A stretch of 64,000 nt of DNA from positions 56,608,001 to 56,672,000 of the forward strand of contig NC_086108.1 in the NCBI RefSeq assembly GCF_963921235.1. Reading direction: 5' to 3'. Origin of the DNA: Mobula hypostoma (lineage: Eukaryota). A program made the translations under genes and the position numbers. Shown here in pieces: positions 4,870-57,084 of this stretch. Under the pieces are notes generated by a model, which made no database searches, was not told the origin of the DNA, and worked only from the letters and a program-made list of their open reading frames with translations. Each line of letters starts with the position of its first letter. Position 1 is the stretch's first letter.

Positions 4870-5800
4870 GCTGTTCAGCAAACCCATTTTGAGCATCCAC
4901 ATGACTTACTGTGAAGAAGGCCGAGTTACCATTACTGTGGACATATTCTCTGCCTGCATCACAGAATTCTGCCTTGAGTGAAAACCCTTCATATTTTTGT
5001 ACAGGTGGATATTTTAAACACTAAAATGTTAAGTCCAAAGCCTTGAATAGTTCTGCTTGAAATTTGTTAGTCTGCACAACTATGTAATCTCACAAGCCCA
5101 ATTTCAAATGTCTGGAAACTTCTTATAAAACTGGATCCAGGTGAGTGCAGTTCATCTGGTCTGTGCCTGGTTAGATAAGACTGGATCCAGGCGAGTGCAG
5201 TTCATCTGGTCTGTGCCTGGTTAGATAAGACTGGATCCAGGTGAGTGCAGTTCACCTGGTCTGTGCCTGGTTAGATAAGACTGGATCCAGGTGAGTGCAG
5301 TTCCACCTGATTGATCAAGGGAGAAATGTTGAAGGAGGGGGACGATCTGATCAGTCAAACAAAAGAATGCAATTTGGACAAGGAGGGGTTGTTTACTGTA
5401 TTCATATTCACACAACACATCACTTTTGATCTTCATAAGAGAAGTTTCAGAACTTTTGTGGGTGAGAAAAATTGGATTCGAGCTTGAAGTTCTGGGAAAA
5501 TAGTTATCAATTTTTGAGTTGACAGTGCATTCAAGAACTTTGCAGCGAAAAAGGTTAGGGCTGGGGAAGTTGTATACAAGGATAACTAATTGATGGATAT
5601 GGTGAGAACAAATTTGAAGGGCAGAGAAACAAGGTCCCACGGATGAGAAATATTGATCAAAATTGCTAGCTTGAGACCACAGAGAAAGTTGAGTGGTCAG
5701 CAGTTTGGTGAGTATGTGGTTAAGAAGATAGTTTTCTTTGTTACCCCACCCATTTCCTCAGACTGGGGAGAAATAAGAAAGAAACTGGAGTAAAATTGCA
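4870..5800 (-). mobile_element. L2-like LINE RT fragment, highly decayed
   Basis: ORF 5221-5640(-) has KVLECTV, SSETSLMKIKSDVL and GTALTWIQSYL, resembling L2 RT motifs HSTETAL and GTALSWFSSYL. Confidence 0.6.
5124..5308. repeat. 50-bp tandem repeat, about 3.5 copies, inside the L2 remnant
   Basis: CTGGATCCAG at 5131, 5181, 5231, 5281 with near-identical units. Confidence 0.97.
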
Positions 5801-13829: not shown

Positions 13830-15605
13830 AGAGATGTAGAACACTATAGCACAGAAGAAGGCCCTTCCATCCATCTAGTCCACGCTGAACTATTAATCTA
13901 CTAGTCCCATTGACCTGTACTCAGGACCATAGCCATCCCTACCCCTCCCATCTACGTGCGGTAATTGATAAGTTCGTGGCCTAAGGTAGAAGGAGTCAAT
14001 TTTAGAAAACCTAGCACATTTATTTTTCAACATAGTCCCCTCCTATATGTACACACTTAGTCCAGTGGTCGTGGAGCATACGGATCTCTTCCTTGTAAAA
14101 GTGATCCACAGCAGGGTGATTGATAAGTTTGTGGCCTAAGGTAGAAGGAGATGAGTTATTAACCTCAAACTTTCTACATTATCATTCAAAGAGTTGAACT
14201 GCATGTGCATATAACGAGAGCATCTTGGACCTCCAGGTGGTCCACAGCAGGGGAGATTGATAAGTTCGTGGCCTAAGGCAAAAGGAGATGAGTTATACAG
14301 CTCTCGTTACACGCACGTGCAGTTCAACTCTTTGAGTGAAAATGCAGAAAGTTTGAAGTTTCTCCTCATCTTGTTCTACCTTAGGCCACAAACTTATCAA
14401 TCACCCCTGCTGTGGACCACTTCTGGAGGTCCAAGACGCCAATCTCTACAAAGAAGGAATCTGTATGCTCCATGACCGCTGGACTAAGTGTGTAAATGTA
14501 GGAAAAATAAATGTGCTAGGTTTTCTAAAATTGACTCCTTCTACCTTAGGTCATGAACTTATCAATCACCCTTCATATGTACTTATACCAATTTCTCTTA
14601 GATGTTGAAATTGAGCCCACATCCACCAGTTGCACTGGCAGCTTGTACCACACCCTCACCACCCTCTGAGTGAAAAAGTTCCCCTCATATTCCCCTTAAC
14701 TTTAACCCATGACCTCTAGTTCTCATCTTAGCCAATCTTAGTGGGAAAACCCTATCTATACCCCTCATAATTTTGTATACCTCTATCAAATCTCCCCTCA
14801 TTTTCCTATACTGTTTTGAAAATCTCCTATATTGTAAAGTTTGCCTGTACTCTTTCAATCTTATTGATATGTTTCCTACAGGTAAGTGACCAGAACTACA
14901 TACAATACTCCAAATTATACCACGCCAATGTCTTCTTCACCTTCCACATAACATGCCAACTCCCGTATTAAGTGCTTTGATTTATGACAGCCAGTGTGTC
15001 AGTGGTATTCTTTATGACCCTATCTACCTGTGATGCTACTTTCAAGGATTGTGGAGCTGTATTCACAGATCCCCCAGTTCTATTAAACTCCTCAGTGTCC
15101 TGCTGCTCACCATGTACGTCCTACCCTGGTTTGTTTTCTCCAAGTGCAACACCTCAAACTTGTCTGCATTAAATCACATTTGCCATTTTTCAGCCCACTT
15201 TTCCAGCTGGTCTAGATCCCACTGCAAGCTTTGGTAGTCTTCCTCACTATCCACTATACCCCCAATCTTGGTGCCATCTGCAAATTTGCTGATCCAGTTA
15301 ACCACGTTATCATCCAGATTGTTGATACAGATGACAAACAACAACAGACTAGCACCAGCCCCTCGGAACATCACTAATCACTGGCTTCAAGTCAGAGAGG
15401 CAACCATCTACAACTACTCTCTGGCTTCTCCCACGAAGCCAATGTCAAATCCAATTTACTACCTCATCCTGAATGCCAAGCGACTGAACCTTCTTGACCA
15501 AACTCCCATGCGGGACCTTGTCAAAGGTCTTACTAAAGTTCGTGTAGACAACATCCATTACCTTCCCTTCATCAACTTTCTTGGTAACTTCCTCGAAAAA
15601 CTCTA
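13830..15605 (-). mobile_element. CR1 LINE (RT to tail) interrupted by a MITE
   Basis: ORFs 15445-15645(-) FSKTFDKVPH and 15174-15374(-) SKFADGTKIGG; the 3' region continues on both sides of the MITE. Confidence 0.88.
13955..14575. mobile_element. Tc1/mariner-type MITE (non-autonomous)
   Basis: Long terminal inverted repeats (GATAAGTTCGTGGCCTAAGGTAGAAGGAGTCAATTTTAGAAAACCTAGCACATTTATTTTTC and its reverse complement). TA at 13953-13954 and 14576-14577. Confidence 0.88.
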
Positions 15606-26191: not shown

Positions 26192-26844
26192 AGATTAGAT
26201 TAGATTATGAGGACACGCAGTCCTCTTTTATTGTCATTTAGTAATGCATGCATTAAGAAATGATACAATGTTTTTCCAGAATGATATCACAGAAACACAT
26301 GACAAACCAAGACTGAAAAACTGACAAAAACCACATAATTATAACATATAGTTACAACAGTGCAAAGCAATACCGTAATTTGATAAGAACAGACCATGGG
26401 CACGGTAAAATCTCAGAGTCTCTCGAAAGTCCCATCATCTCCCGCAGACGGTAAACTTCCAGCGCCGCAAACTTGCCAATGCAGCATCCCAGAGCATCCA
26501 ACCACAGTCCGACTCTGAGTCCGTCTGAAAACTCTGAGCCTCCGCCCAGCTCCCCAACACTGATGCAGCAAGCGCCATCTCTGTCGAGTGCTTTGACCCT
26601 GGCCCTGGCAACAGGCAATAGACAAGGCCGAGGATTTGGGGCCTTCCCTCTGGAGATTCTCGATCACGCAGTAGCAGCAGCAGCGAAGCAGGCATTTCAG
26701 AAGTTACTCCAGATGTTCCTCCGTGCTTCTTCACGTCTGTCTCCATCAAATCAGGATTGTGCACGGCATCCTACTTCACAGATACGATAGCAATTCAGAA
26801 CTGCCACGCACACTACGTCGCGCCGCCATCTTCTCCTCCCTCCC
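26192..26844 (-). mobile_element. Non-autonomous retroposon copy 1 (full length), nested in Gypsy pol
   Basis: Homologous to 32729-33258 and 42891-43560. Minus strand begins GAAGATGGCGGCG and ends GACAATAAA, stem-loop, (TAATC)n. Gypsy frame DCVI|..LLPG resumes across it. Confidence 0.88.
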
Positions 26845-32728: not shown

Positions 32729-33258
32729 TAGATTAGATTATAAGGACACTCAGTCCTCGTTTATTGTCATTTAGAAATGCATGCATTAAAAAATGATACA
32801 ACATTCCTCCAGAATGATATCACAAAAAATAACACAGGACAAACCAAGACTAAAACTTACAAAACCATATAATTATAACATATAGTTACAACAGTGCAAA
32901 GCAATACCATAATTTGATAAAGAGCAGACCATGGGCGTGGTAAAAAAAGTCTCAAAGTCCCGATAGCCTCATCATCTCACGCAGGTGGTAGAAAGGAGAA
33001 ACTCTCCCTGCCATGAACCTCCAAGCGCCACAAACTTGCCGATGCAGCACCATTGGAAGCGCCCGACCGCAGAGAACTCTGAGTCAGTCCGAAAACTTTG
33101 AGCCTCCTACCAGCCCCTCTGACACAGCCTCTCCGAGCACCATCCTCTACCGAGCACTTCGACCCTTCCCTGGCCGCCGAGCAACAAGCAAAGCCGAGGA
33201 CTCGGGGCCTTCCCCTCCGGAGAATCTAGACCACACAGTAGCAGCAGCAGCGAAGCAG
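32729..33258 (-). mobile_element. Non-autonomous retroposon copy 2 (5'-truncated), nested in CR1
   Basis: Same tail and body as copies 1 and 3; the CR1 RT sequence continues across it. Confidence 0.88.
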
Positions 33259-35644
33259 TGAAGCACTACACTCAGTCCCCTCTTCCAGATCATTAATGTA
33301 TATCATGACCAGCTGTGGGCCCAACACTGATCCCTGCGGCACACTGTTCTTCACTGATTGCGAACCAAAGTAATACCCATGTAGCCCAACTCTCTTCTTT
33401 CTGTTAGTTAACCAATCCTCTATCCATGCTAATCCATCACCCACAACTCTATGCATCCTTATCTTATGGATAAGTCTTTTATGTGACACATTATTGAATG
33501 CTTTCTGGAAATCCAAGTAAATAGCGTTCATCTGTACCCCTCTATCCAATGTGCTTGTTATATCCTCAAAGAGCTCCAGTATGTTTATCAAACAGGATCT
33601 GCCTTTGCTAAATCCATGCTGCATCTGCCTGATGGATCTATTTCTCTCCAGATGTCTCACTATTTCTTCTTTAATGATAGCTTCAAGCATTTTCCCAACT
33701 ACAGATGTTAAAGTAACTGGCCTATAGTTACCTGCCTTTTGCTTACATCCTTTTTTGAACAGTGGCGTGACATTCGCCTTCTTCCAATCCACTGGGACCT
33801 GCCCAGAGTCCAGAGAATTCTAGTAAATTATCTACTATAACCTCTGCCATTTCTTTCAGGACCGTGGGATAAAATCCATCAGGAGCAGGGGACTTGTCCA
33901 TCTTTAGGCCCACAAGTTTGCTCAGCACTACCATCTTCAGTGATAGCTGTTGTATTGAGGTCCTTGCCTCCCATTGCATCCATATCATCTCTCTTTGATA
34001 TGTTAGATGTGTTCTCCACTGTGAAGACCAACACATTCAAAGCCTCAGCCATTTCTTCATTACCCAATATCAATTCCCCCTTTCATCCTCCGAGGGACCT
34101 ACGTTCATTTCAGCCACCCTTTTCTGCTTTATATAATTATAAAATCTTTAACTATCCATTTTTATATTTTGTGCTACTTTATTTTCATAATCTATCTTCC
34201 CTTTCTTTATTGCTCGCTTAATGGTTCTTTGTTGCTTTTTAAAGTTTTCCCAATCTTCCAGTTTCCCATTACTCTTGGCGACTTTGTATGCAAGAGCTTT
34301 TAGTTTGATGCCTTCTTTTATTTCCTTAGTTATCCATGGCTAACTCTCTCCACCCTTACTGCCCTTGCTTTTAACTGGAATATACTTTTATTGAGCACCG
34401 TGAAAAATCTCTTTGAAAGTCTTCCACTGTTCCTCAACCATCCCACCAATAGCCTGTGACCCCAGTCTATAGTAGCCAAATCCTCCCTCGTCACATTGTA
34501 GTCTCCATTGTTTAGGCATAATACACTGGTTTTAAATCGAAATATTGGAAACTCAATCATACTGTGATCACTCTTTCCAAGAGGATCCCTAACTACAAGA
34601 TCACTGATTTTACCTGCCTCATTGCACAGGATCAGATCAAAGATAGCACATTCCTTTGTAGTAACATGCTGTTCAAGAAAGCTATCATGTATGTATTCTA
34701 TGAAGTCCTCCTCAAGCTTTGACCAACTTGATTCATCCAATCTATGCACGAGTTAAAGCCCCCCATAATAACTACTGTTCCATTGTTTGATGCCTCAGAT
34801 ATTTCTCGGTTTATTGCCTGTGCCACTGTAATGCTGCTATTCGGTGGCCGTTGGACAACTCCCACCAGTGATATTTCCCCTTTACTATCCCTAATCTCTA
34901 CTCAGATGGATTCAACATTCTGCTCCTTAGATCTTATATCGTTTCTCACTATCACCCTGATCTCATCCTTAATTAAGAGTGCTACTCCACCTCCCTTACT
35001 TTCCTGCCTATCCTTCCATATAACCTGATATCCTTGGAAATTTAGTTCCCAATCCTCTCCACCCTGCGACTACGCTTCTGTAATGGCCACTAAATCATAC
35101 CCCTTTGTATTGAGTTGTGCCGCAAGTTCACTGACCTTGTTTGGAATGCTACAGGCATTCAGATAAAGTGCCTTTACACTCATTGTGCTTTTAAAATATA
35201 GTAATCTTTATCTCTTTTGTGCTCCACCCTTTCTTTTCTCTTTTTTTATCTTTTACTTTTATTTTATATTTATCCACACTTTTCTCTTTTACTTTATCCG
35301 TACTTCCCAATCTGTTGAACCCACCCCCTGCTATTCAGTTTAAAGCCCTATCAAAGCCGTATTTATATGATTTGCCAGGACTCAGGTCCCATCACGGTTC
35401 AGGTGGAGCCCGTCTCAATGGAACAGTTCTCTCCTTTCCCAGATTCCCATGAATTCAAACCCATTTCTCCTACGCCACACATTTGACTCTCTAATCTTCT
35501 TAACCCTTTGCCAATTTGCATGTGGCTCAGGTAGTAATCCAGAGATTACCATATTTTTGGTTCAGTTTTTTAACTGTGAGAAAGGTGGTTTGTGAGAATA
35601 CACAATAGACAATTAATCTGCTCTCCCAAAACATCAAGTAGGAA

Positions 35645-38032
35645 TGTAATAGTAGGTGATTTTAACTTTCCACATATTGACTGGGACTCTTGTACTGTAA
35701 AAAGGCTGGATGGGCAAGAGTTCGCCAGATATGTTCAGGAAAATTTCCTTAATTAGTACATAGAAGTCCACCTAGAGAGAATATGATACTAGATCTTCTG
35801 TTGGGGAATGAGTCAGGGCATGTTGCAGAAGCTTGTGTAGGGGAACACTTTGCATCTAGTGATCATAATGCTATTGGTTTCAAGGTAATTATGAAAAGGA
35901 TAAGTCTAGTCCACAGGCTGAGATTCTAAATTGGAGAAAGGGCAATTTTGAAGTTATCAGGAAAGATCTGGCAAGTATGTATTAGGACAGGGTGTTTTCT
36001 GGTAAAGGTGTACTCAGTAAGTGGGAGGCCTTAAAAAGCGAAATTTTGAGAGTAGTCTGTATGTTCCTGTCAAAATAAAAGGCAAGTGTAACAGGTTTAG
36101 TGAACCTTGGTTTTCAAGAAATATTGTGGCCCTGGTTAAGGAAAAAAAGGGGTGCATAGCAGGTATTGGCAGGCAGGAACAAATAAAGTACTTGAAGAGT
36201 ATAAGAAATGCAAGAGAACACTTCAAAAGGGAGTCAGGGGGCTGAAAAAAAAGACATGAGGTTGCTCTAACAGAGAAGGTGAAGGAGAATCCTAAAGGCT
36301 TTTAGAGATAAAAAAAACAAACGGGACAAAATTGGTCCTCTGGTAAATTAGAGTGGCAATCTAGGCATGGAGACAAAAGAGATGGGGGAGAACTTAAATG
36401 GATTATTTGCATCTGTATTTATTTGGGAGATGGAGACAGAGTCTAAAGAAGTGAGGTAATGCAGCAGTGAACTCATAGACCCTATGCAGATTACAGAGGA
36501 GAAGGTGCTTGCTGTCTTGAGGCAAATTAGGGCAGACATATCCTCTGGGCCTGAAAAGTTGTTCACTTGGACCCTGTGGGAGGCCAATAGAAAAATTTGA
36601 AGAGGCCCCTAGCAGAGATATTTTAAACATCCATGGTCACGGGTGATGTGCTGGAACGTTGAAGGATAACTAATGTTGTTCCATTGTTTAAGAAAGGCTC
36701 TAAGAATAAGTCAAGAAATTATAGACCAGCAAGCCTGATACCAGTAGTGGAAATGTATTGGAAGATATTCCAGGGGACCAGATATTAGTAAGTATTTGGA
36801 TAGCAGTGTCTGATTAGTGATAATCAACATGGCTTTGTGTGTGGTAGGTCATATCTAACCAATCTTGTAAGGTTTTTTGAGAAGTTACCAGGAAAGTTGA
36901 AGGCAAGGCAGTAGATGTTGTCTACATGGACTTTAGCAAGGCCTTTGACAAAGTCCCACATGGGAGGTTGGTCAAGAAGTTTCAGTCCCTTGGCCTTCAA
37001 GATGAGGTAGTAAAATAGATTAGAGTTACACACTTTTGTGTTAATAAAAATGAAAGGATAGCAAGGGACAAAATTAATCCTCTAGAAAATTAGAGTATTA
37101 GCACATTTTTTTCTTGTTTTTAAAGTGGATTAGGTATTGGATTTGTAGAAGAAGCCAGAGAGTGGTTGTAGATGGTTGCCTCTCTGACTAGAGGCCTGTG
37201 ACTAAGGGTGTGCCGCAGGGATCTGTGCTGGGTCTGTTGTTGTTTGTCATCTATATCAATGATCTGAATGATAATGTGTTAATCAGGAACAGCAAATTTG
37301 TGGACACCAAGATTGGGGGTGTAGTGGACAGAGAGGAAGACTATCAAAGTTTGTAGGGGGTATCTGGACCATCTGGTGAAATGAGCTGAAAAATGCCAGA
37401 TGTAATTTAATGCAGACAAGGTGCTACACCTTGTGAGGATCAACCAGGGCAGGTCTTGCACAGTGTGCTTTAGGGCACTGAGGAGTGTGATAGAACAGAG
37501 GGACTGTGTCTAGTTTTGTTCACCTACCTACAGGAAAGACGTAAGTAAGATTGAAAGAGTGCAGAGAAAATTTACAAGGACATTGCTGGAACTTCAGGAC
37601 CTGAGTTATTGAGAAAGATTGAACAGGTTTGGACTTTATTCTCTAGAATGCAGAAAGCTGAAGGGAGATTTGATAGATGTAAAATGTAAAATTATGAGAG
37701 GTATGGTTAGTGTAACTGTAAGAAAGCTTTTCCCACTGAGGTTGGGTTAGACTAAAGCTAGGGGGCATGGGTTAAGGGTGAAAGGTGAAACGTTTACAGG
37801 AAATATGAGGGGGATCTTCTTCACTCAGAGTGTGGAGCGAACTGCCAGTGCAAGTGGCAGATGCAGGGTCAATTTCAACATATAAGAGAAATTTGGATAG
37901 GTACACAGCTGGGAGGGGTATGCAGGCCTATGGTTCAGGTGCAGGTCGATGGGACTATGTAGATTAATGGTTCAGCACAGATTAGATGGGCTGAAGGGCC
38001 CTTTTCTTTGCTGTAGTGTTCTATGACTCTAT
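35645..38032 (+). mobile_element. CR1 LINE ORF2 (endonuclease end through RT to tail), decayed
   Basis: GDFNFPHIDW, SDHN, YMDFSKAFDKVPH, GVPQGSVLG, CR1-type tail. Confidence 0.88.
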
Positions 38033-42670: not shown

Positions 42671-42890
42671 GTGTCTTTGAAACACGCACCCTTTTTCAGG
42701 AAGGACTGCACACTAACAGCTCTCCGGTCATTTGTGAGAAAAGGCATAGTGAATGAGGTGAAGTGAGGGTCTGTGTGGGAAGACATGCCTAGTGCAATAG
42801 TCAGGAAACAACAAAAAAGGCCAATATGCACATGCAGCAAGTGATTAATAATGCAAATGATTAGTTAACCTTCATTATGATAGTTCTTTT

Positions 42891-43560
42891 TAGATTATGA
42901 GAACACTCAGTCCTCATTTATTGTCATTTAGAAATGCTACATTAAAAAATGATACAACGTTCCTCCAGAATGATATCACAAGAAAACACAGGAAAAACCA
43001 AGACTAAAACTGACAAAACCACCTAACTCTAACATATAGTTACAACAGTGCAAAGCAATACCATAATTTGATAAAGAGCAGACCATGGGCACGGTAAAAA
43101 AAAGTCTCAAAATCCAATAGCCTCATCATCTCATGCAGGCAGCAGAAGGGAGGAACTCTCCCGCCATGAACCTCCAAGCGCCGCCAACTTGCCGATGCAG
43201 CACCATTGGAAGCACCCGACCGCAGCGGACTCTGAGTCTGTCCGAAAACTTCGAGCCTCTGACCAGCCCCTCCAACACAGCTTCTCTGAGCACCATACTC
43301 TGTGGAGCGCTTTGACCCCGCCCCGGCCACCGAGCAACAAGCAAAGCCGAGGACTCTGGACCTTCTTCAGAGATTCTCTACCACACAGTAGCAGCAGCAG
43401 CAAAGCAGGCGTTTCAGAAGTTTCACCAGATGTTCCTCCGTGCTCTCACGTCCGTCTCCATCAAATCAGGATTGTGCACGGCACCATACTTGACAAATAA
43501 CAGACATCACCACTGGAGTGGCCGCTGCAAGCTATATCGCGTCGCCATCTTCTCTTCTCT
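42891..43560 (-). mobile_element. Non-autonomous retroposon copy 3 (full length)
   Basis: End-to-end homology with 26192-26844; head GAAGATGGCGACG. Confidence 0.88.
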
Positions 43561-51012: not shown

Positions 51013-51648
51013 TGATAAGGGTATTCTCAGATTCCTGTAAATAATGATTAAGGTTGTGTCTGTGTATTCTGGTTTGAGAATGGCTGCAGCGTGTTTGAGC
51101 AGCTGCTCTTTGGAGTGAGATAAGTTTTAAGAGCTCACAAAACCTACAAGAGGATATCTCCTGACTTTTCACAATTTTGGTTTCGACAAAAATCGGTTGC
51201 TGATGGAAATTAGACAGGACATTCCTTTCTTAATTAAAGCATAAAAGTTGGTGGGTGTTCTTATCTTTGTAATTAAGTTTTGGCTCCAACAAAACAGGTA
51301 GGGCATTCCTTTAAAATGGCTGGAGCGTCTATCAAACTGAATGTCCTTTTGTATCAATAATCCACTTACTTGACTGGAATATCTATTTTGTTTGAGGTGA
51401 TTAAGTGGTCTTTGTCTCGGACTATCACTGTTGCTGAGCATGTGACTGTGAGGGTTAGCTAGAAATAGTTTTCTGCATACGTGCAAAGATGTATAAAAAC
51501 TCTGTATCTCTGTGCTACGACAGAGAGAACTCCGTGGCTGTGAGAGTGCAGAAAGAGGGCTCTCTCTCTCGTAGCTTGCTACTAATAAAGGTGGAAAAGA
51601 ATGAACTGTGGTTCTTGTTTCATTACATTGGGTTGATCACCGTTAACA
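51013..51648 (+). repeat. ERV 5' LTR
   Basis: TGATAA...TTAACA; TATAAA at 51492-51497; AATAAA at 51584-51589; direct repeat of 56435-57084. Confidence 0.96.
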
Positions 51649-51651
51649 ATT

Positions 51652-51669
51652 TGGTGAGCCAGCCAGGAG
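51652..51669 (+). promoter_or_regulatory. Primer-binding site, tRNA-Arg(ACG) type
   Basis: TGGTGAGCCAGCCAGGAG, 3 nt after the LTR. 17/18 match to the complement of the vertebrate tRNA-Arg(ACG) 3' end as recalled (TGGCGAGCCAGCCAGGAG). Confidence 0.85.
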
Positions 51670-51743
51670 TTCAAACGAGTGATCTCCATGAGACGGCGTC
51701 AGCGATAATCTGTGTGGCAACGACCTGAGACAGATGAGCCCAC

Positions 51744-51752
51744 AAGGTAAGA
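51744..51752 (+). promoter_or_regulatory. Candidate major splice donor of the ERV
   Basis: AAG|GTAAGA in the leader downstream of the PBS. Candidate env acceptor TTTCTCCACTCTCAG|G at 54790-54805. Confidence 0.55.
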
Positions 51753-52059
51753 TTCACCTTGATTTCTCTCACTAGCCAGTCGCATGGAAAATCCATTCGT
51801 CTCATGGGCTACTCTCTAACGGACTCCTGCAGAACCTAGTTAAGGATCACCCAAGTGCCATGGTTAGATCTGGGTTTGAGTCCTCGGCTAAGCAAAAAGA
51901 GTTGGGTTCGAGGCCACATCTTGAGTATCTACACCCTGCCTTAGACCGGTTGTTAAGAGGGGAAATCCCCCATGCGAAGGTCAGGAACCTGAAGTGGGCG
52001 GAAGGAAAACAGTGGCCGATTAGTGCTTGAGAGACGAATATATAAAATTGTACGGAACG

Positions 52060-52765
52060 GTGGGTCAGACCTTAGATAAAGCGGGAAATAACACACTGTT
52101 ATTTAAATTATGTAAAGATGATCCAGAAAAAGAAAACAACTATCGTAGGTTATCAGCATGCTTAAATAAGTAATTGGGTAATGATATTTGGCCTTTGGGG
52201 GAAACTTGGGATATTGATAAATGCCTCAAAGCCAAGAGGTGATTTGGAAACACAACACCGGGCAGAAATGAAAAGTCTTAATGTCTATTTGGAGAAAAAC
52301 AGCCGAAGAATTAACCAATAGATCTAAACAAACTAGCTGGGAGCACAACATGCATTGGAGAGTTACCTGATACCGAAGGGGAATCTGAAGTCTTGGGAGA
52401 CATTGAGGGGTCAATGTGAGGATTATGATAATCAAGAGCAGAAGAATTATAGGCAAGGTAGTAAGGACAAAAGTAATAAGAAAGAAAAGGATAAAAGGAA
52501 GGCTAAAGCTGGCAGAGGTAAAACTGAGGTACCTCTTGACCTGTCTGGACTGACCATGCTATTTGACGATAATGAGACCAAGCAGAAGGAGGACTGGAGA
52601 GATCAACCCATGGTCCCCATCCACCCCTCCCTTCTACCACCACCACAACCGCCATATAATGCAAGTACAACCAACAACCAACCTACGCAGAGTGCCTCCC
52701 CGATCCAATCCCACGATCCCATAGCCTCCCGAATGAGGGGCCAGCTCAAGCAGAGGCGTAAGAGG
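52060..52765 (+). pseudogene. gag: gag N-terminal remnant (matrix and proline-rich region)
   Basis: GTG-GGT-CAG reads (M)GQTLDK, a myristoylation-type start. WPLGETW, basic patch, PPPQPPY late-domain-like motif. Stops and frameshifts; no CA or NC follows. Confidence 0.7.
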
Positions 52766-55026
52766 CCTGCAAAGAGGCTCTGTATACCAGGCACTTAAGC
52801 CCTGTGGCCTCCAGTTTGGCCAAGGGACCAAAAGAATTGCTAGAACAGCAGAAAGAGGCCTTCGAGGAACTGAACAAGTCCCTCTCCAGAGCGCCGGCAC
52901 TTGGCCGCCCGCTCTATGACCAGCCATTCCAATTTTCTGTCAACGTCTTAGATGGATGTGCCACCGCAGTGTTTACCCAGACCCATGGCAACAGGTGCAG
53001 ACCCGTTGCTTATTACTCTACTAAACTAGACCCCCTAGCCCAGGGACTGCCCCCTTGCTCACAGGTGCTCCCAGCCATTTACTCCCTAGTTACAGGGGCA
53101 TCAAACATCACTCTCCAACAGCCGGTGACAGTTTATTCATCGCACACCATTACGGCTCGACTTACCTCGCACCAGACACAGCAGCTTACCCAGGCGAGAC
53201 TAAGCCGATATGACCCACTCCTTACCTTCACCCTATTGTAACACTATCAACCCAGCAACATTCCTAGAAGCACCCCCAGCCGAGTTGGGAGAACCTCCTC
53301 ATGACTGCCTGCTACGGAACCATCTTCTCACCTCACCCCGACCCGACCTCTCAGATACGGCCATACATGGGGCACAACTCACCCTTTACGTTGACGGCAG
53401 CTCGACAGTCTCTGAGACTGGGGAACACCTCTGTGGATACGCCGTTACAAACGATGCCCAGACCTAAGAGAGTGGCTCCCTTCAGCCCCCTGTCTCTGCC
53501 CAGAAGGCAGAGCTATTTGCACTCACCCAAGCCTGCATCCTGGCCAAGGGTAAAGATGCAAACATTTACACGGATTCCCGCTATGCTTTTGGGGTAGCCC
53601 ATGACTTTGGACAATTGTGGGCTCAAAGGGGGTTCCTGACCTTCTCTGGTGGGCTGATTCAGAATGCTACCTATGTAAAGAACCTCTTCCAGGCTACCTT
53701 CCTCCCTGAGAAATTGGCAATTATAAAATGCTCAGCTCACCTACATGATGATTCTGCAGTGACTAAAGGAAATAATCGGGCAGACTTAACAGCCAATCAG
53801 GCTGCGCAAGAGGCAACTATTGTAGTTTTAACTGCAGAGAAATCAGCCTTTACAGTAAGTCATCCCAAGCACCGGGCACTCCAGAGATGGCCACAATCCA
53901 AAAACTACAGGGGAACGCCCCTGATTCCGAGAAAGAACTCTGGAAGACACAGGGATGTGCGCGTTCGGTGTCCATAGGCCTCTGGCATACCCCAATCGGC
54001 CAAGTCTGTACTCCTAATACATTACTGCCAATGTTGCTTGATTGCGTGCATGCAGACACCCACCTTGGCACGGAGGGAATATTTTACACCGCACATGGTG
54101 ACATCCAAGATTGGAAGAGGCTGCCAAAGTAAAAATACAATCCTGTTTGATCTGCCAGAAGACTAATGCAGATAAGGGGATAAGATGCCCCACAGGAAAA
54201 ACTCCCTTGCCAGGTGAGCCATTTGAATGCATTCAGCTTGACTTTATTGAGTTACTGCGGGTGCACTGTTATAAATATTGCCTTGTTGTGGTAGATGCTT
54301 TTAGTAGGTGGATCGAAGCCTTCCCAACTACCAATAGTAAAGCCTCAACAGTGGTACAATTAGTACTGACAGAGATCATATCAAAGTTTGGGGTAACTCA
54401 GCAGATTAGTTCAGATAATGGCCCACACTTTGCGGGAAAGATTAACAAGGAGCTGTGTGAGGCCTTGCACATTGAGCAGCAGTTCCACTGTTCCTATCAC
54501 CCCAAAGCAGCAGGTATTGTGAAAAGGGCAAACGGAACGCTGAAAAACAAGCGAACAAAATTGACCTCAGAGACGGGGCTGAATCAGTTAAAGGTGCTTC
54601 CCTTGGCCCGATATCACATGAGAATTACCCCACACTCTGCCACAGGGGTATCCGCAGCAGAGATCGTCTATGGCCGACCAGGAAGAACACTCTGGGATTC
54701 CAATATAACACCCCCCGACTCAGGTGGATCTCCACATCATGTGGGAGGAACTGCAGAAATATTTTCACCAGTTAACACCCTCTTTAAAGTTTCTCCACTC
54801 TCAGGTGCAGAAGACCTTTAAGGAACCCAGGCAAGAGGCAGACCAGCCGGACCTAAGGATTGGAGACCGAGTGCTAATTCATGACTGGGAACGACCCAAG
54901 CTTGGACCTAGGTGGAAAGGTTATCTTCAGGTCCTGTTGCAAATGCCCATAGCCGTTCAGGTACAAGGCCAGGAACATTGGATACACCTCAGCGACTGCA
55001 AGAGATGGCTCCCAGCCCAAGATTAA
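52766..55026 (+). pseudogene. pol: pol 3' half: RT connection, RNase H and integrase, frameshifted
   Basis: AFEELNKSLSRAPAL, PVAYYSTKLDP; LYVDGSS, SAQKAEL, IYTDSRYAFG, KGNNRAD; HADTHLG..CLIC, LDFIEL, SSDNGPHF, YHPKAAGIVKRANGTLK, LGPRWKG. Confidence 0.95.
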
Positions 55027-56405
55027 TCATTTACAGACTTATCTCTTTGCTTTATGATGAATTTAATGCTTTGGAAGATAACCTGTTTTATCAAACACAT
55101 ATGCGATTGCCTGTAACCGTACTGCATGCTATTCTTTGGCACAATCTGCAGAAGCACTGTTTATAGCTAACCCATCAGGGCTACTCTGGAAGGAGCATGA
55201 TCTAACAGTGAAGGATGGATCAGGGGCAGAATGTAGAGGGAGACGGGGAAAGTTTTGGAAAGGGATATGGGGACAATGTATTGACAATCTAAACGATACG
55301 ACTATAGATAATCATGCCAGTGGTAAACAGAACCCTGGGTGCCTGGGAACCCGCAAGTGGCATGGGGTAAGGGATGGGGGAGAGTGGGTAACTAGCCCGT
55401 GCTGCAAGAGCACAAGGGACTACCCCTTCTGTTTCTTGGGGAAAGGATGGGGGTGCGTCACAGCCCAGGTACCCAGAGAAATACCTTGCTTGGAGAAACA
55501 TTGTTTGGACCACCAATGTAAGATAACGAAGGGAAAATTCTCTTGCGAATGTATCCAAGAGCAATGCGTGCCCCTTTCAAAGGGAATTCAGTATGTATGT
55601 GGATATTGTAATGGGACTCGTGTTAGCTGGCTCAGGGACTTTTGAATACTCCTCCCTGTACCCCAAGGACCATTTATGGTATGATAAAATGTTAGCTGGT
55701 AATAACACTTGCTATTGAGCCAAGAAAGGATACGTATTCTTGTTCAACGGCACCTATACTAAGGCTACCACCAACCTGCCTCCATTCTTCACGATCAGGA
55801 CAAACGGTCCCCTTTCTGTTCCCTGCCCCACATCCGACAGCGACTGACAGCCCAGTCTGTGAGTAAGAAATTCTGTACAGATTGGAAAGATCTTGTTACT
55901 CTGGGCTCCTCTTTGGGCCATGGGTTTCTGAGTACTCTCTCTCTAGGGGGTTCGGCAGGAACCATAGCCGAAAAGAACGTGACTACCTCATTTGTGAAGG
56001 CTGACGGCACTGGGAAACAGCACTATGAAAGGATTGGAGGCTATCAACCAGGAGATGGCGGAACTACAACTCTATGCACAGCAGACTCGATATGCTGTAG
56101 ATTACCAGTTAGCACAACAGGGAGGAGTATCTGTGATTGTGGGAGGCAAGTGTGTTACCCATGTTAGGGTTGAGTCCTATAATGTATCTCCAGGAGCAAC
56201 TAGACAGTTTTAGACAAGGACCCACTGGAGGGGATGGGTGGTTAGGCTGGTTACTAGGAGGAGATCTTGGACATCTTATTTGCTACACGGAGCAATAATA
56301 CTGATATTAATTATCATAGCATGCTGTGTATTGCTGACTCGCTTTAAAGGCTGCTGTAAAGCCTTTAGGAACAAGCTCTCTGATCCATTCTCAGCACTAC
56401 TTTAG
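55005..56405 (+). pseudogene. env: env (Cys-rich SU plus TM), frameshifted
   Basis: ATG overlapping the pol end. Cys-rich SU with CGYC. Heptad/ISD-like LEAINQEMAELQLYAQQTRYAVDYQLAQQGG, (S)x6C, membrane span LLHGAIILILIIIACCVLL, stop at 56403-56405. Confidence 0.9.
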
Positions 56406-56421
56406 TTTATCATCAGATGAT

Positions 56422-56434
56422 AAAAAGGAGGGAA
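56422..56434 (+). promoter_or_regulatory. Polypurine tract
   Basis: AAAAAGGAGGGAA immediately before the 3' LTR. Confidence 0.9.
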
Positions 56435-57084
56435 TGATAAAGTCTTAAGGAGATTCTCAAATTCCTGTAAATAATGGTTAAGGTTGAGTCTGTGTATTCT
56501 GGTTTGAGAATGGCTGCAGCGTGTTTGAACAGCTGCTCTTTGGAGTGAGATAAGGATTAAAAGCTCATAAAACCCACAAAAGGATATCTCCTGACTTTTC
56601 ACAATTTTGGTTTCGACAAAAATCGGTTGCTGATGGAAATTAGACAGGACATTCCTTTCTTAATTAAAGCATAAAAGTTGGTGGGTGTTCTTATCTTTGT
56701 AATTAAGTTTTGGCTCCAACAAACCAGGTAGGGCATTCCTTTCTTAATGAAAGTTGCTGGAGTCTCCATCAAACTGATTGTCCTTTTGTATCAATAATCC
56801 ACTTACTTGACTGGAATATCTATTTTGTTTGAGGTGATTAAGTGGTCTTTGTCTCAGACTATCACTGTTGCTGAACATGTGACTGTGAGGGTTAGCTAGA
56901 AATAGTTTTCTGCATATGTGACAAAGATGTATAAAAACTTTGTATCTCTGTGCTACGACAGAGAGAACTCCGTGGCTGTGAGAGTGCAGAAAGTGGGTTC
57001 TCTCTCTTAGCTTGCTACTAATAAAGGTGGAAAAGAATGAACTGTGGTTCTTGTTTCATTACATTGGGTTGATCACCGTTGACA
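56435..57084 (+). repeat. ERV 3' LTR
   Basis: TGATAA...TTGACA; AATAAA at 57020-57025; roughly 95% identical to the 5' LTR by eye. Confidence 0.96.

Follow-up and report, generated by a model that had tools for sequence, protein, structure and literature searches.

ERVs of cartilaginous fish (genera Chiloscyllium, Scyliorhinus, Amblyraja and Leucoraja) have been reported to carry filovirus-like Env ectodomains, which were placed as sister to the glycoproteins (GPs) of Ebola, Marburg, Lloviu and Mengla viruses with a posterior of 0.83 (Nino Barreat and Katzourakis 2024; PMC11521997). The same paper, in agreement with its preprint, pairs Tapajos virus with Mabuya and Varanus elements. On the proposed descent of filovirus GP2 from a retroviral env this is the one published tree, and the analysis behind it left out SU and the fusion loop. 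Among retroviruses, the avian gamma-type (alpharetroviral) Env carries an internal fusion peptide with cysteines on either side, and in gamma-type Envs a third Cys makes the SU-TM disulfide (PMC3758190). Frog ERVs carry cysteine-flanked fusion peptides on epsilon-like or ERV-L pol (bioRxiv 10.1101/2024.07.05.601823), bats and amphibians have alpha-like envs joined to a gamma-like pol (PMC13568524, PMC12690878), and Mab-Env3 has been treated as alpha-like (Hotzel, 10.1101/2021.11.05.467493). Chen et al. (10.1101/2021.11.23.469661) described gamma-type envs in six cartilaginous fish, as well as a CXnC subtype and novel fusion peptides. Syncytin-like Envs of chondrichthyans are the subject of a 2026 preprint (10.64898/2026.05.06.723177), in which only CX6CC candidates are reported.

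We analyzed one stretch of 64,000 nucleotides (the window), which holds a defective class I ERV, likely of a shark or ray, with a frameshifted env. It is quite probable that the front of the TM subunit of this env carries a predicted Cys-clamped internal fusion loop, as in filovirus GP2. The family to which the env belongs is most likely the cartilaginous-fish group of PMC11521997, an identity drawn from descriptions rather than from a sequence comparison: the ERV context, the chondrichthyan host (taken from relatives) and the best viral matches among filovirus GPs all fit. Both are cartilaginous-fish env ectodomains with Tapajos, Mengla and Marburg GPs as best viral matches, and LTR-bounded elements of about 6 kb appear in the table of that paper as well as here. 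The first-pass annotation had suggested an undescribed lineage; since PMC11521997 reports this relationship in cartilaginous-fish ERVs, the lineage is very likely one already reported, and the figures or supplements of Chen et al. (10.1101/2021.11.23.469661) may already show the family. The pairing of an epsilon-like pol with a cysteine-flanked fusion peptide has a precedent in the frog ERVs (bioRxiv 10.1101/2024.07.05.601823). What is added here is anatomy, namely the lack of a third Cys and of a canonical furin site, together with the placing of Mab-Env2 and Tapajos virus as closest named kin. The main text of PMC11521997 makes no mention of cysteine, disulfide, loop or CX6CC and does not describe the loop anatomy, and its placement beside Ebola and Marburg differs from that of our trees, which place the family with Tapajos and Mab-Env2. 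In the open-access literature we found no description, for this family, of the loop, the missing Cys or the SU homology to Mab-Env2.

The provirus and its env gene

The provirus is about 6.1 kb long and dead, with its env spread over many frames and its RT core deleted. Its features are listed below in window coordinates.

51013..51648, + strand: 5' LTR (TG...CA), direct repeat with the 3' LTR, 96% identical (605/631 aligned bases; K2P distance 0.044)
51652..51669, + strand: primer-binding site, TGG start, immediately 3' of the LTR
51670..52777, + strand: leader and presumed 5' gag remnant, stopping at an internal deletion
52777..53977, + strand: pol remnant, RT connection domain and RNase H, several frames (PF17919, E 1.6e-13; PF00075, E 3.8e-15)
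53978..55026, + strand: pol remnant, integrase core and MLV-type C-terminal domain, several frames (PF00665, E 4e-17; PF18697, E 1.1e-10)
55026..55850, + strand: env signal peptide and SU, with frameshifts and one stop (tblastn of intact relatives P0001-P0003; the family SU profile matches Mab-Env2)
55832..55873, + strand: basic stretch 5' of the first loop Cys, likely the SU/TM boundary region, without R-X-K/R-R
55874..55995, + strand: Gly-rich hydrophobic segment between Cys codons, predicted internal fusion loop, split here by a frameshift
55998..56189, + strand: N-glycan sequon, HR1, ISD-like stretch and CX6C chain-reversal loop
56188..56405, + strand: two frames that hold HR2, a membrane-proximal stretch rich in Trp, the membrane anchor and a short tail
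56422..56434, + strand: polypurine tract, adjoining the 3' LTR
56435..57084, + strand: 3' LTR (TG...CA), direct repeat with the 5' LTR

Paired LTRs, a primer-binding site, a polypurine tract and the gag-pol-env order make up the anatomy of a class I ERV, and a target-site duplication of 4 bases with one mismatch flanks the element. The primer-binding site is one we take to be of the tRNA-Arg type; no tRNA genes were found within the 64-kb window. The gag remnant is presumed to be gag from its position, Pfam having given no match to it. An internal deletion of about 2.9 kb at 52777 has removed 3' gag, protease and the RT core. It was seen by blastn against a longer, likewise broken copy (L061), where the alignment jumps from 7514 to 4644, and the RT motifs fall within the missing part. 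Sibling RTs have the YVDD motif, and MLV RT is their closest match (E 2e-41, against 1e-23 for foamy RT); judged by these sequences the pol of the env family is class I, on the gamma/epsilon side, as the first-pass annotation had it. A search of the integrase against the PDB yielded no classification. The named close relatives of the env family all come from sharks or rays. A cartilaginous fish is therefore the likely host, in agreement with the earlier proposal.

The window copy is thus a defective ordinary provirus, a fossil that makes no Env. A filovirus EVE was rejected because of the LTR-pol-env context, and a host-captured (syncytin-like) env was rejected for the window copy, which has at least seven breaks in env and no intact ORF. 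The closest sibling proviruses (in G000, C45:52761516-52764764, C78:32882894-32885901 and C5:170172240-170176988) are short, with 3-4.7 kb between LTR matches, and are differently deleted copies that retain env.

Three-frame translation and tblastn place env, fragmented into many pieces, at about 55026-56405. The first-pass annotation had joined three pieces in three frames across two frameshifts, and this layout is borne out: the breaks lie near 55978 and 55996-56000, the loop Cys codons at 55874 and 55993 stand in different frames in the window copy, and an N-S-T sequon follows the second Cys at the start of HR1, as it does in most siblings. Both frameshifts are present, but the count of two was too low, with further breaks near 55110, 55625, 55829 and 56189 and ahead of the membrane anchor. 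An open frame at 55998-56210 holds the heptad/ISD-like piece; its part at 55998..56189 has Marburg GP2 as best PDB match (E 7.6e-4) and Tapajos GP as best named match (39% over 56 aa). No significant Pfam match was obtained for the window env frames. Using the natural open piece at 55998-56210 to search the genome gave at least 119 matches among 150 scored candidates, which is a lower bound and not a copy number. The 40 best matches (one of them the window copy, leaving 39 siblings) and 20 more distant matches were examined.

Relatives of the family Env

A TM profile built from 15 natural TM frames was searched against the PDB and matched filovirus GP at E 5e-19, syncytin-2 at 8e-11 and ASLV TM at 0.035. 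When 1.8 billion proteins were searched by profile, Tapajos ranked 33 and filovirus GPs 61-73 among the 150 matches listed. Five of 104 loop-less TMs outscored all filoviruses on the core, and the core similarity does not by itself single out filoviruses.

A core tree was produced from 55 rows and 103 columns; 26 rows were picked at random from the 105 loop-less ones, and 11 loop rows were left out. The window piece fell within a 17-row clade (96/97), and a branch with support of 88/93 joined that clade to Tapajos, Mab-Env2, CAS virus, the filoviruses and one loop-less row; 25 loop-less, three squamate and three alpha-like rows lay on its other side. The TM does not, then, group with ordinary gamma Envs, 25 of the 26 loop-less TMs being separated from it by this branch. 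The kinship with filovirus GP2 claimed in the first-pass annotation finds support both in the PDB profile match and in the position of the filoviruses on the family's side. When the loop was included (39 rows, 147 columns) the clade joined Tapajos and Mab-Env2 at 96/93, a grouping that had 88/83 after 12 of the 39 rows were dropped and 65/76 on the core alone. The deep branches are based on 103-147 columns, in trees where long branches meet and which hold no true Ebola or ASLV row. A protein labelled as Zaire ebolavirus GP (P0171, ALT19595.1) is identical to Marburg GP at 654 of 674 positions, so that no true Ebola sequence entered the trees. P0171 is also a best match in the table of PMC11521997.

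SU was compared separately. Among 185 proteins an SU-only profile matched Mab-Env2 at E 7e-14 and matched no filovirus, and profile alignments reached 357 columns in Mab-Env2, 181 in Tapajos GP and 85 in Marburg GP. The ESM Atlas gave feature matches of SU to TLV_coat and Avian_gp85 clusters (0.92-0.93), which serve as a lead only. On these sequence comparisons the closest named relatives are the lizard Mab-Env2 and Tapajos virus GP, both missed by the first-pass annotation, rather than Ebola and Marburg, although a pairing of the fish family with the filoviruses was not rejected (p-AU 0.158 and 0.139).

Mab-Env2 (the captured env of the Mabuya lizard, ATY46612) is homologous to the family from the SU N-terminus to the anchor, and has a cysteine-flanked loop of 37 residues and no third Cys. 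It differs in its identity of about 22-26%, its CX7C and a longer stretch from the basic site to the first Cys, and it is an intact host gene, whereas the window copy is a decayed provirus. Tapajos virus GP (from a snake filovirus, YP_010798909), besides being the best named match of the window's open piece, also lacks the third Cys, and its alignment spans the last SU strand through the loop. Unlike the family it belongs to an RNA virus and has CX7C and an R-X-X-R; SU homology beyond the last strand is non-significant (E 0.12). Marburg, Mengla and Lloviu (and Ebola) GP2 have a Cys-flanked internal loop with a sequon after the second Cys, as the family does. In Marburg, Mengla and Lloviu GP2 the second Cys stands exactly 45 residues before CX6C, the same register as in the family, and core identity is 31-33%. 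They (and Ebola) differ from it by CX6CC with a GP1-GP2 disulfide and by a 44-residue loop of different sequence, and the profile comparison detected no SU/GP1 similarity. The first-pass annotation, in likening the loop to that of Ebola GP2, had overlooked the absence of a third Cys: the family has CX6C where Ebola and Marburg have CX6CC.

It is possible, though we think it doubtful, that the family is nevertheless the true sister of Ebola/Marburg/Lloviu/Mengla GP2, the third Cys having been lost here or regained there. The published posterior of 0.83 (PMC11521997) and the two AU values speak for such a placement, as do the N-x-N-x-x-x-C-x-L before HR1 that is common to the family and the filoviruses and the best blastp match of a second env family, which is to Marburg by a small margin. 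However, trees left free place the family with Tapajos and Mab-Env2 at the supports given above (including the lower values on the core alone), SU homology extends to Mab-Env2 only, and the missing third Cys is common to Tapajos and Mab-Env2, not to these filoviruses. We therefore retain the grouping with Mab-Env2 and Tapajos GP as the preferred one.

The avian gamma-type Env and the alpha-like envs of frogs, caecilians, lizards and bats resemble the family in their Cys-flanked internal fusion peptide, but they have CX6CC and a furin site, and a grouping of the fish clade with the alpha-like rows was rejected (p-AU 0.041, from three alpha-like rows and no ASLV row). As a statement of kinship the label 'ASLV-type' given by the first-pass annotation is not supported, in view of this test and the ASLV TM match at only E 0.035. 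Since it has no third Cys, the family would work like an avian gamma-type Env but is not filed as one. The standard gamma-type Env (MLV, syncytin) differs from the family in an N-terminal fusion peptide directly after the furin site, in CX6CC and in its loop-less grouping.

In sequence the loop is weakly similar to filovirus loops (mean z 0.7-2.3) and more similar to squamate ERV loops (z 4.0-5.6). Three squamate Envs, P0114 (Anolis), P0107 (Ahaetulla) and P0152, have a cysteine-flanked loop of 48-49 residues and no third Cys; in sequence no other loops come nearer to that of the fish (mean z 4.0-5.6), yet their core groups with alpha-like TMs. Two unnamed clade members (P0017 and P0051) have a fusion-loop stretch nearly identical to that of the CAS reptarenavirus GP2 (P0108; max z 6.5).

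Cysteines, cleavage and the predicted fusion loop

Behind the ISD the family has CX6C and then a hydrophobic residue, with no third Cys; the window copy has in addition lost one of the two CX6C cysteines. Among 156 proteins, the first Cys of the motif was present in 151 and the CC ending in 121. Every one of the 20 clade proteins spanning the motif is among the 30 without CC, the rest being Tapajos GP, Mab-Env2, three Envs of squamate type and five more. With the third Cys missing, SU and TM were likely associated non-covalently, and a trigger by disulfide isomerase would then be absent.

The canonical furin site R-X-K/R-R is absent family-wide, a second feature that the first-pass annotation had missed, and the basic stretch before the loop does not fit the furin consensus. 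Even the looser R-X-X-R was found in none of 15 sibling frames and none of 12 relatives within the 16 residues before the first Cys (a further five sibling frames and one protein did not extend far enough to be counted). An Arg is kept seven residues before the first Cys in 11 of the 15 sibling frames and 11 of the 12 relatives, and a dibasic pair lies further upstream in 8/15 and 11/12, respectively. In a sister family of the same clade, 8 of 12 rows have R-X-K/R-R seven residues before the same Cys. Both candidate cuts lie upstream of the first Cys, so that the loop would stay internal. Subtilisin S1P-type enzymes cut at R-X-hydrophobic-Z, a rule that fits some copies and does not fit relatives with Val at P1.

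An alternative, which we judge improbable, is that the first Cys stays with SU or bonds an SU Cys, which would give a covalent SU-TM link in place of the third Cys and make the hydrophobic stretch a near-N-terminal fusion peptide. It would accord with the absence of a canonical furin site in the family, with an SU that is Cys-rich (CxxC in four of six long relatives) and with a predicted structure that gives the clamp no support. Against it stand the sister family, with its R-X-K/R-R upstream of the very same Cys at the position where the present family keeps an Arg, the absence of a basic site inside the loop, and a Cys spacing that fits GP2 and alpha-like TMs. The clamped internal loop accordingly remains the reading that we prefer.

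The whole loop and HR1 lie in one open frame in 20 of the 39 siblings; in the remaining 19 the frame is interrupted within the loop or close to it. All 20 open siblings retain the first Cys, and 16 retain the second; the Cys-Cys spacing is 39 residues in 14, 35 in five and 40 in one (siblings L016 and L017, near-duplicates, are both counted). Nine of 12 database relatives have C-x39-C, one has lost the second Cys and two are partial. The ERV env TM with an internal cysteine-flanked hydrophobic loop that the first-pass annotation described is thus found in single natural frames, with both cysteines in one frame, and R-X-X-R is absent inside the loop in all 39 frames examined, and no furin site directly precedes the hydrophobic stretch. 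At 39/50 and 57/63 positions, and in the correct order, the window pieces agree with an open frame that occurs naturally in a sibling, which argues that the window motif is not a chance assembly. Although the window pieces occupy three frames, an artefact of joining them by eye can be set aside with near certainty, since unjoined single frames in 20 siblings and nine database proteins carry the motif.

Pooled pairwise dN/dS among 12 open copies came to 0.27 for the loop and 0.09 for the core, from copies picked for their open frames and pairs that are non-independent. These values suggest that the loop was constrained during virus replication.

A natural sibling TM frame was modeled as a post-fusion hairpin with a mean pLDDT of 62.5, and with values below 50 at loop residues 20-47. 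By analogy the two flanking cysteines likely formed a disulfide, in a part of the model where pLDDT is below 50. The best PDB matches of the TM model were CAS, Marburg and Ebola GP2 (E 3e-3 to 1e-2), followed by syncytin-1 (0.025) and ASLV (0.25); no match in this PDB fold search reached E 0.001. In BFVD the best match was an Ebola GP fragment (5.6e-4). The fold matches are not independent evidence, because filovirus and CAS GP2 rows were present in the folding alignment. A full-length model of a natural relative had a pLDDT of 41.7 and was unusable.

Proposed mechanism and wider context

Cleavage, insertion of a clamped loop and six-helix refolding are modeled here on GP2 and ASLV (PMC9967133; bioRxiv 10.1101/2023.10.07.561363). 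A host protease would cleave between SU and TM at a basic site of non-canonical type, 7 to 11 residues upstream of the first Cys, and SU and TM would then be held together non-covalently without the third Cys. The disulfide-clamped loop would enter the target membrane, and HR1 with its leading glycan, the CX6C turn and HR2 would refold into the usual six-helix hairpin or bundle. A low-pH trigger is plausible by the same analogy.

We tentatively propose, as a minority view of our own data, that the shark and ray ERVs, Mab-Env2 and Tapajos GP form one whole-Env lineage extending from fish to reptiles. It would be characterized by a clamped internal loop and a non-covalent SU-TM association, with the main fish branch matured by a protease other than furin. 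Such a lineage may represent the retroviral source of the filovirus fusion subunit, and would redraw the published pairing of shark ERVs with Ebola and Marburg. The family adds many copies and long natural open frames that include SU and the fusion loop, which makes the origin of GP2 testable beyond the ectodomain core.

A gamma-type Env that has an internal loop but neither the SU-TM Cys nor the furin consensus would be missed by screens for R-X-X-R and CX6CC. Full-length Env ORFs of this family, 463-497 aa long, exist in other records (P0001, P0002, P0004, P0008 and P0185), and as these lack R-X-X-R and CX6CC they would fail the filters described in bioRxiv 10.64898/2026.05.06.723177.

Other env sequences were found in the same genome as the window copy. 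A second env family (L041-L048, L052, L053 and L056) has a cysteine-flanked loop of 38-41 residues and falls in the same clade; it is without the third Cys but has a canonical R-L-K-R site, and is nearly identical to a database protein (P0013). Remnants of ordinary gamma-type env with CX6CC (L050, L051 and L057-L060) provide an internal contrast. Elsewhere in the window, tandem arrays with units of 35, 72, 58 and 50 bases lie at 521-895, 1024-1436 and 5125-5303. Dispersed repeats that are 78-92% alike, in inverted and direct orientation, occur at 14832-15571 and 36898-37577, and in a second set at 26196-26727, 32729-33294 and 42890-43444, and are probably host transposons.
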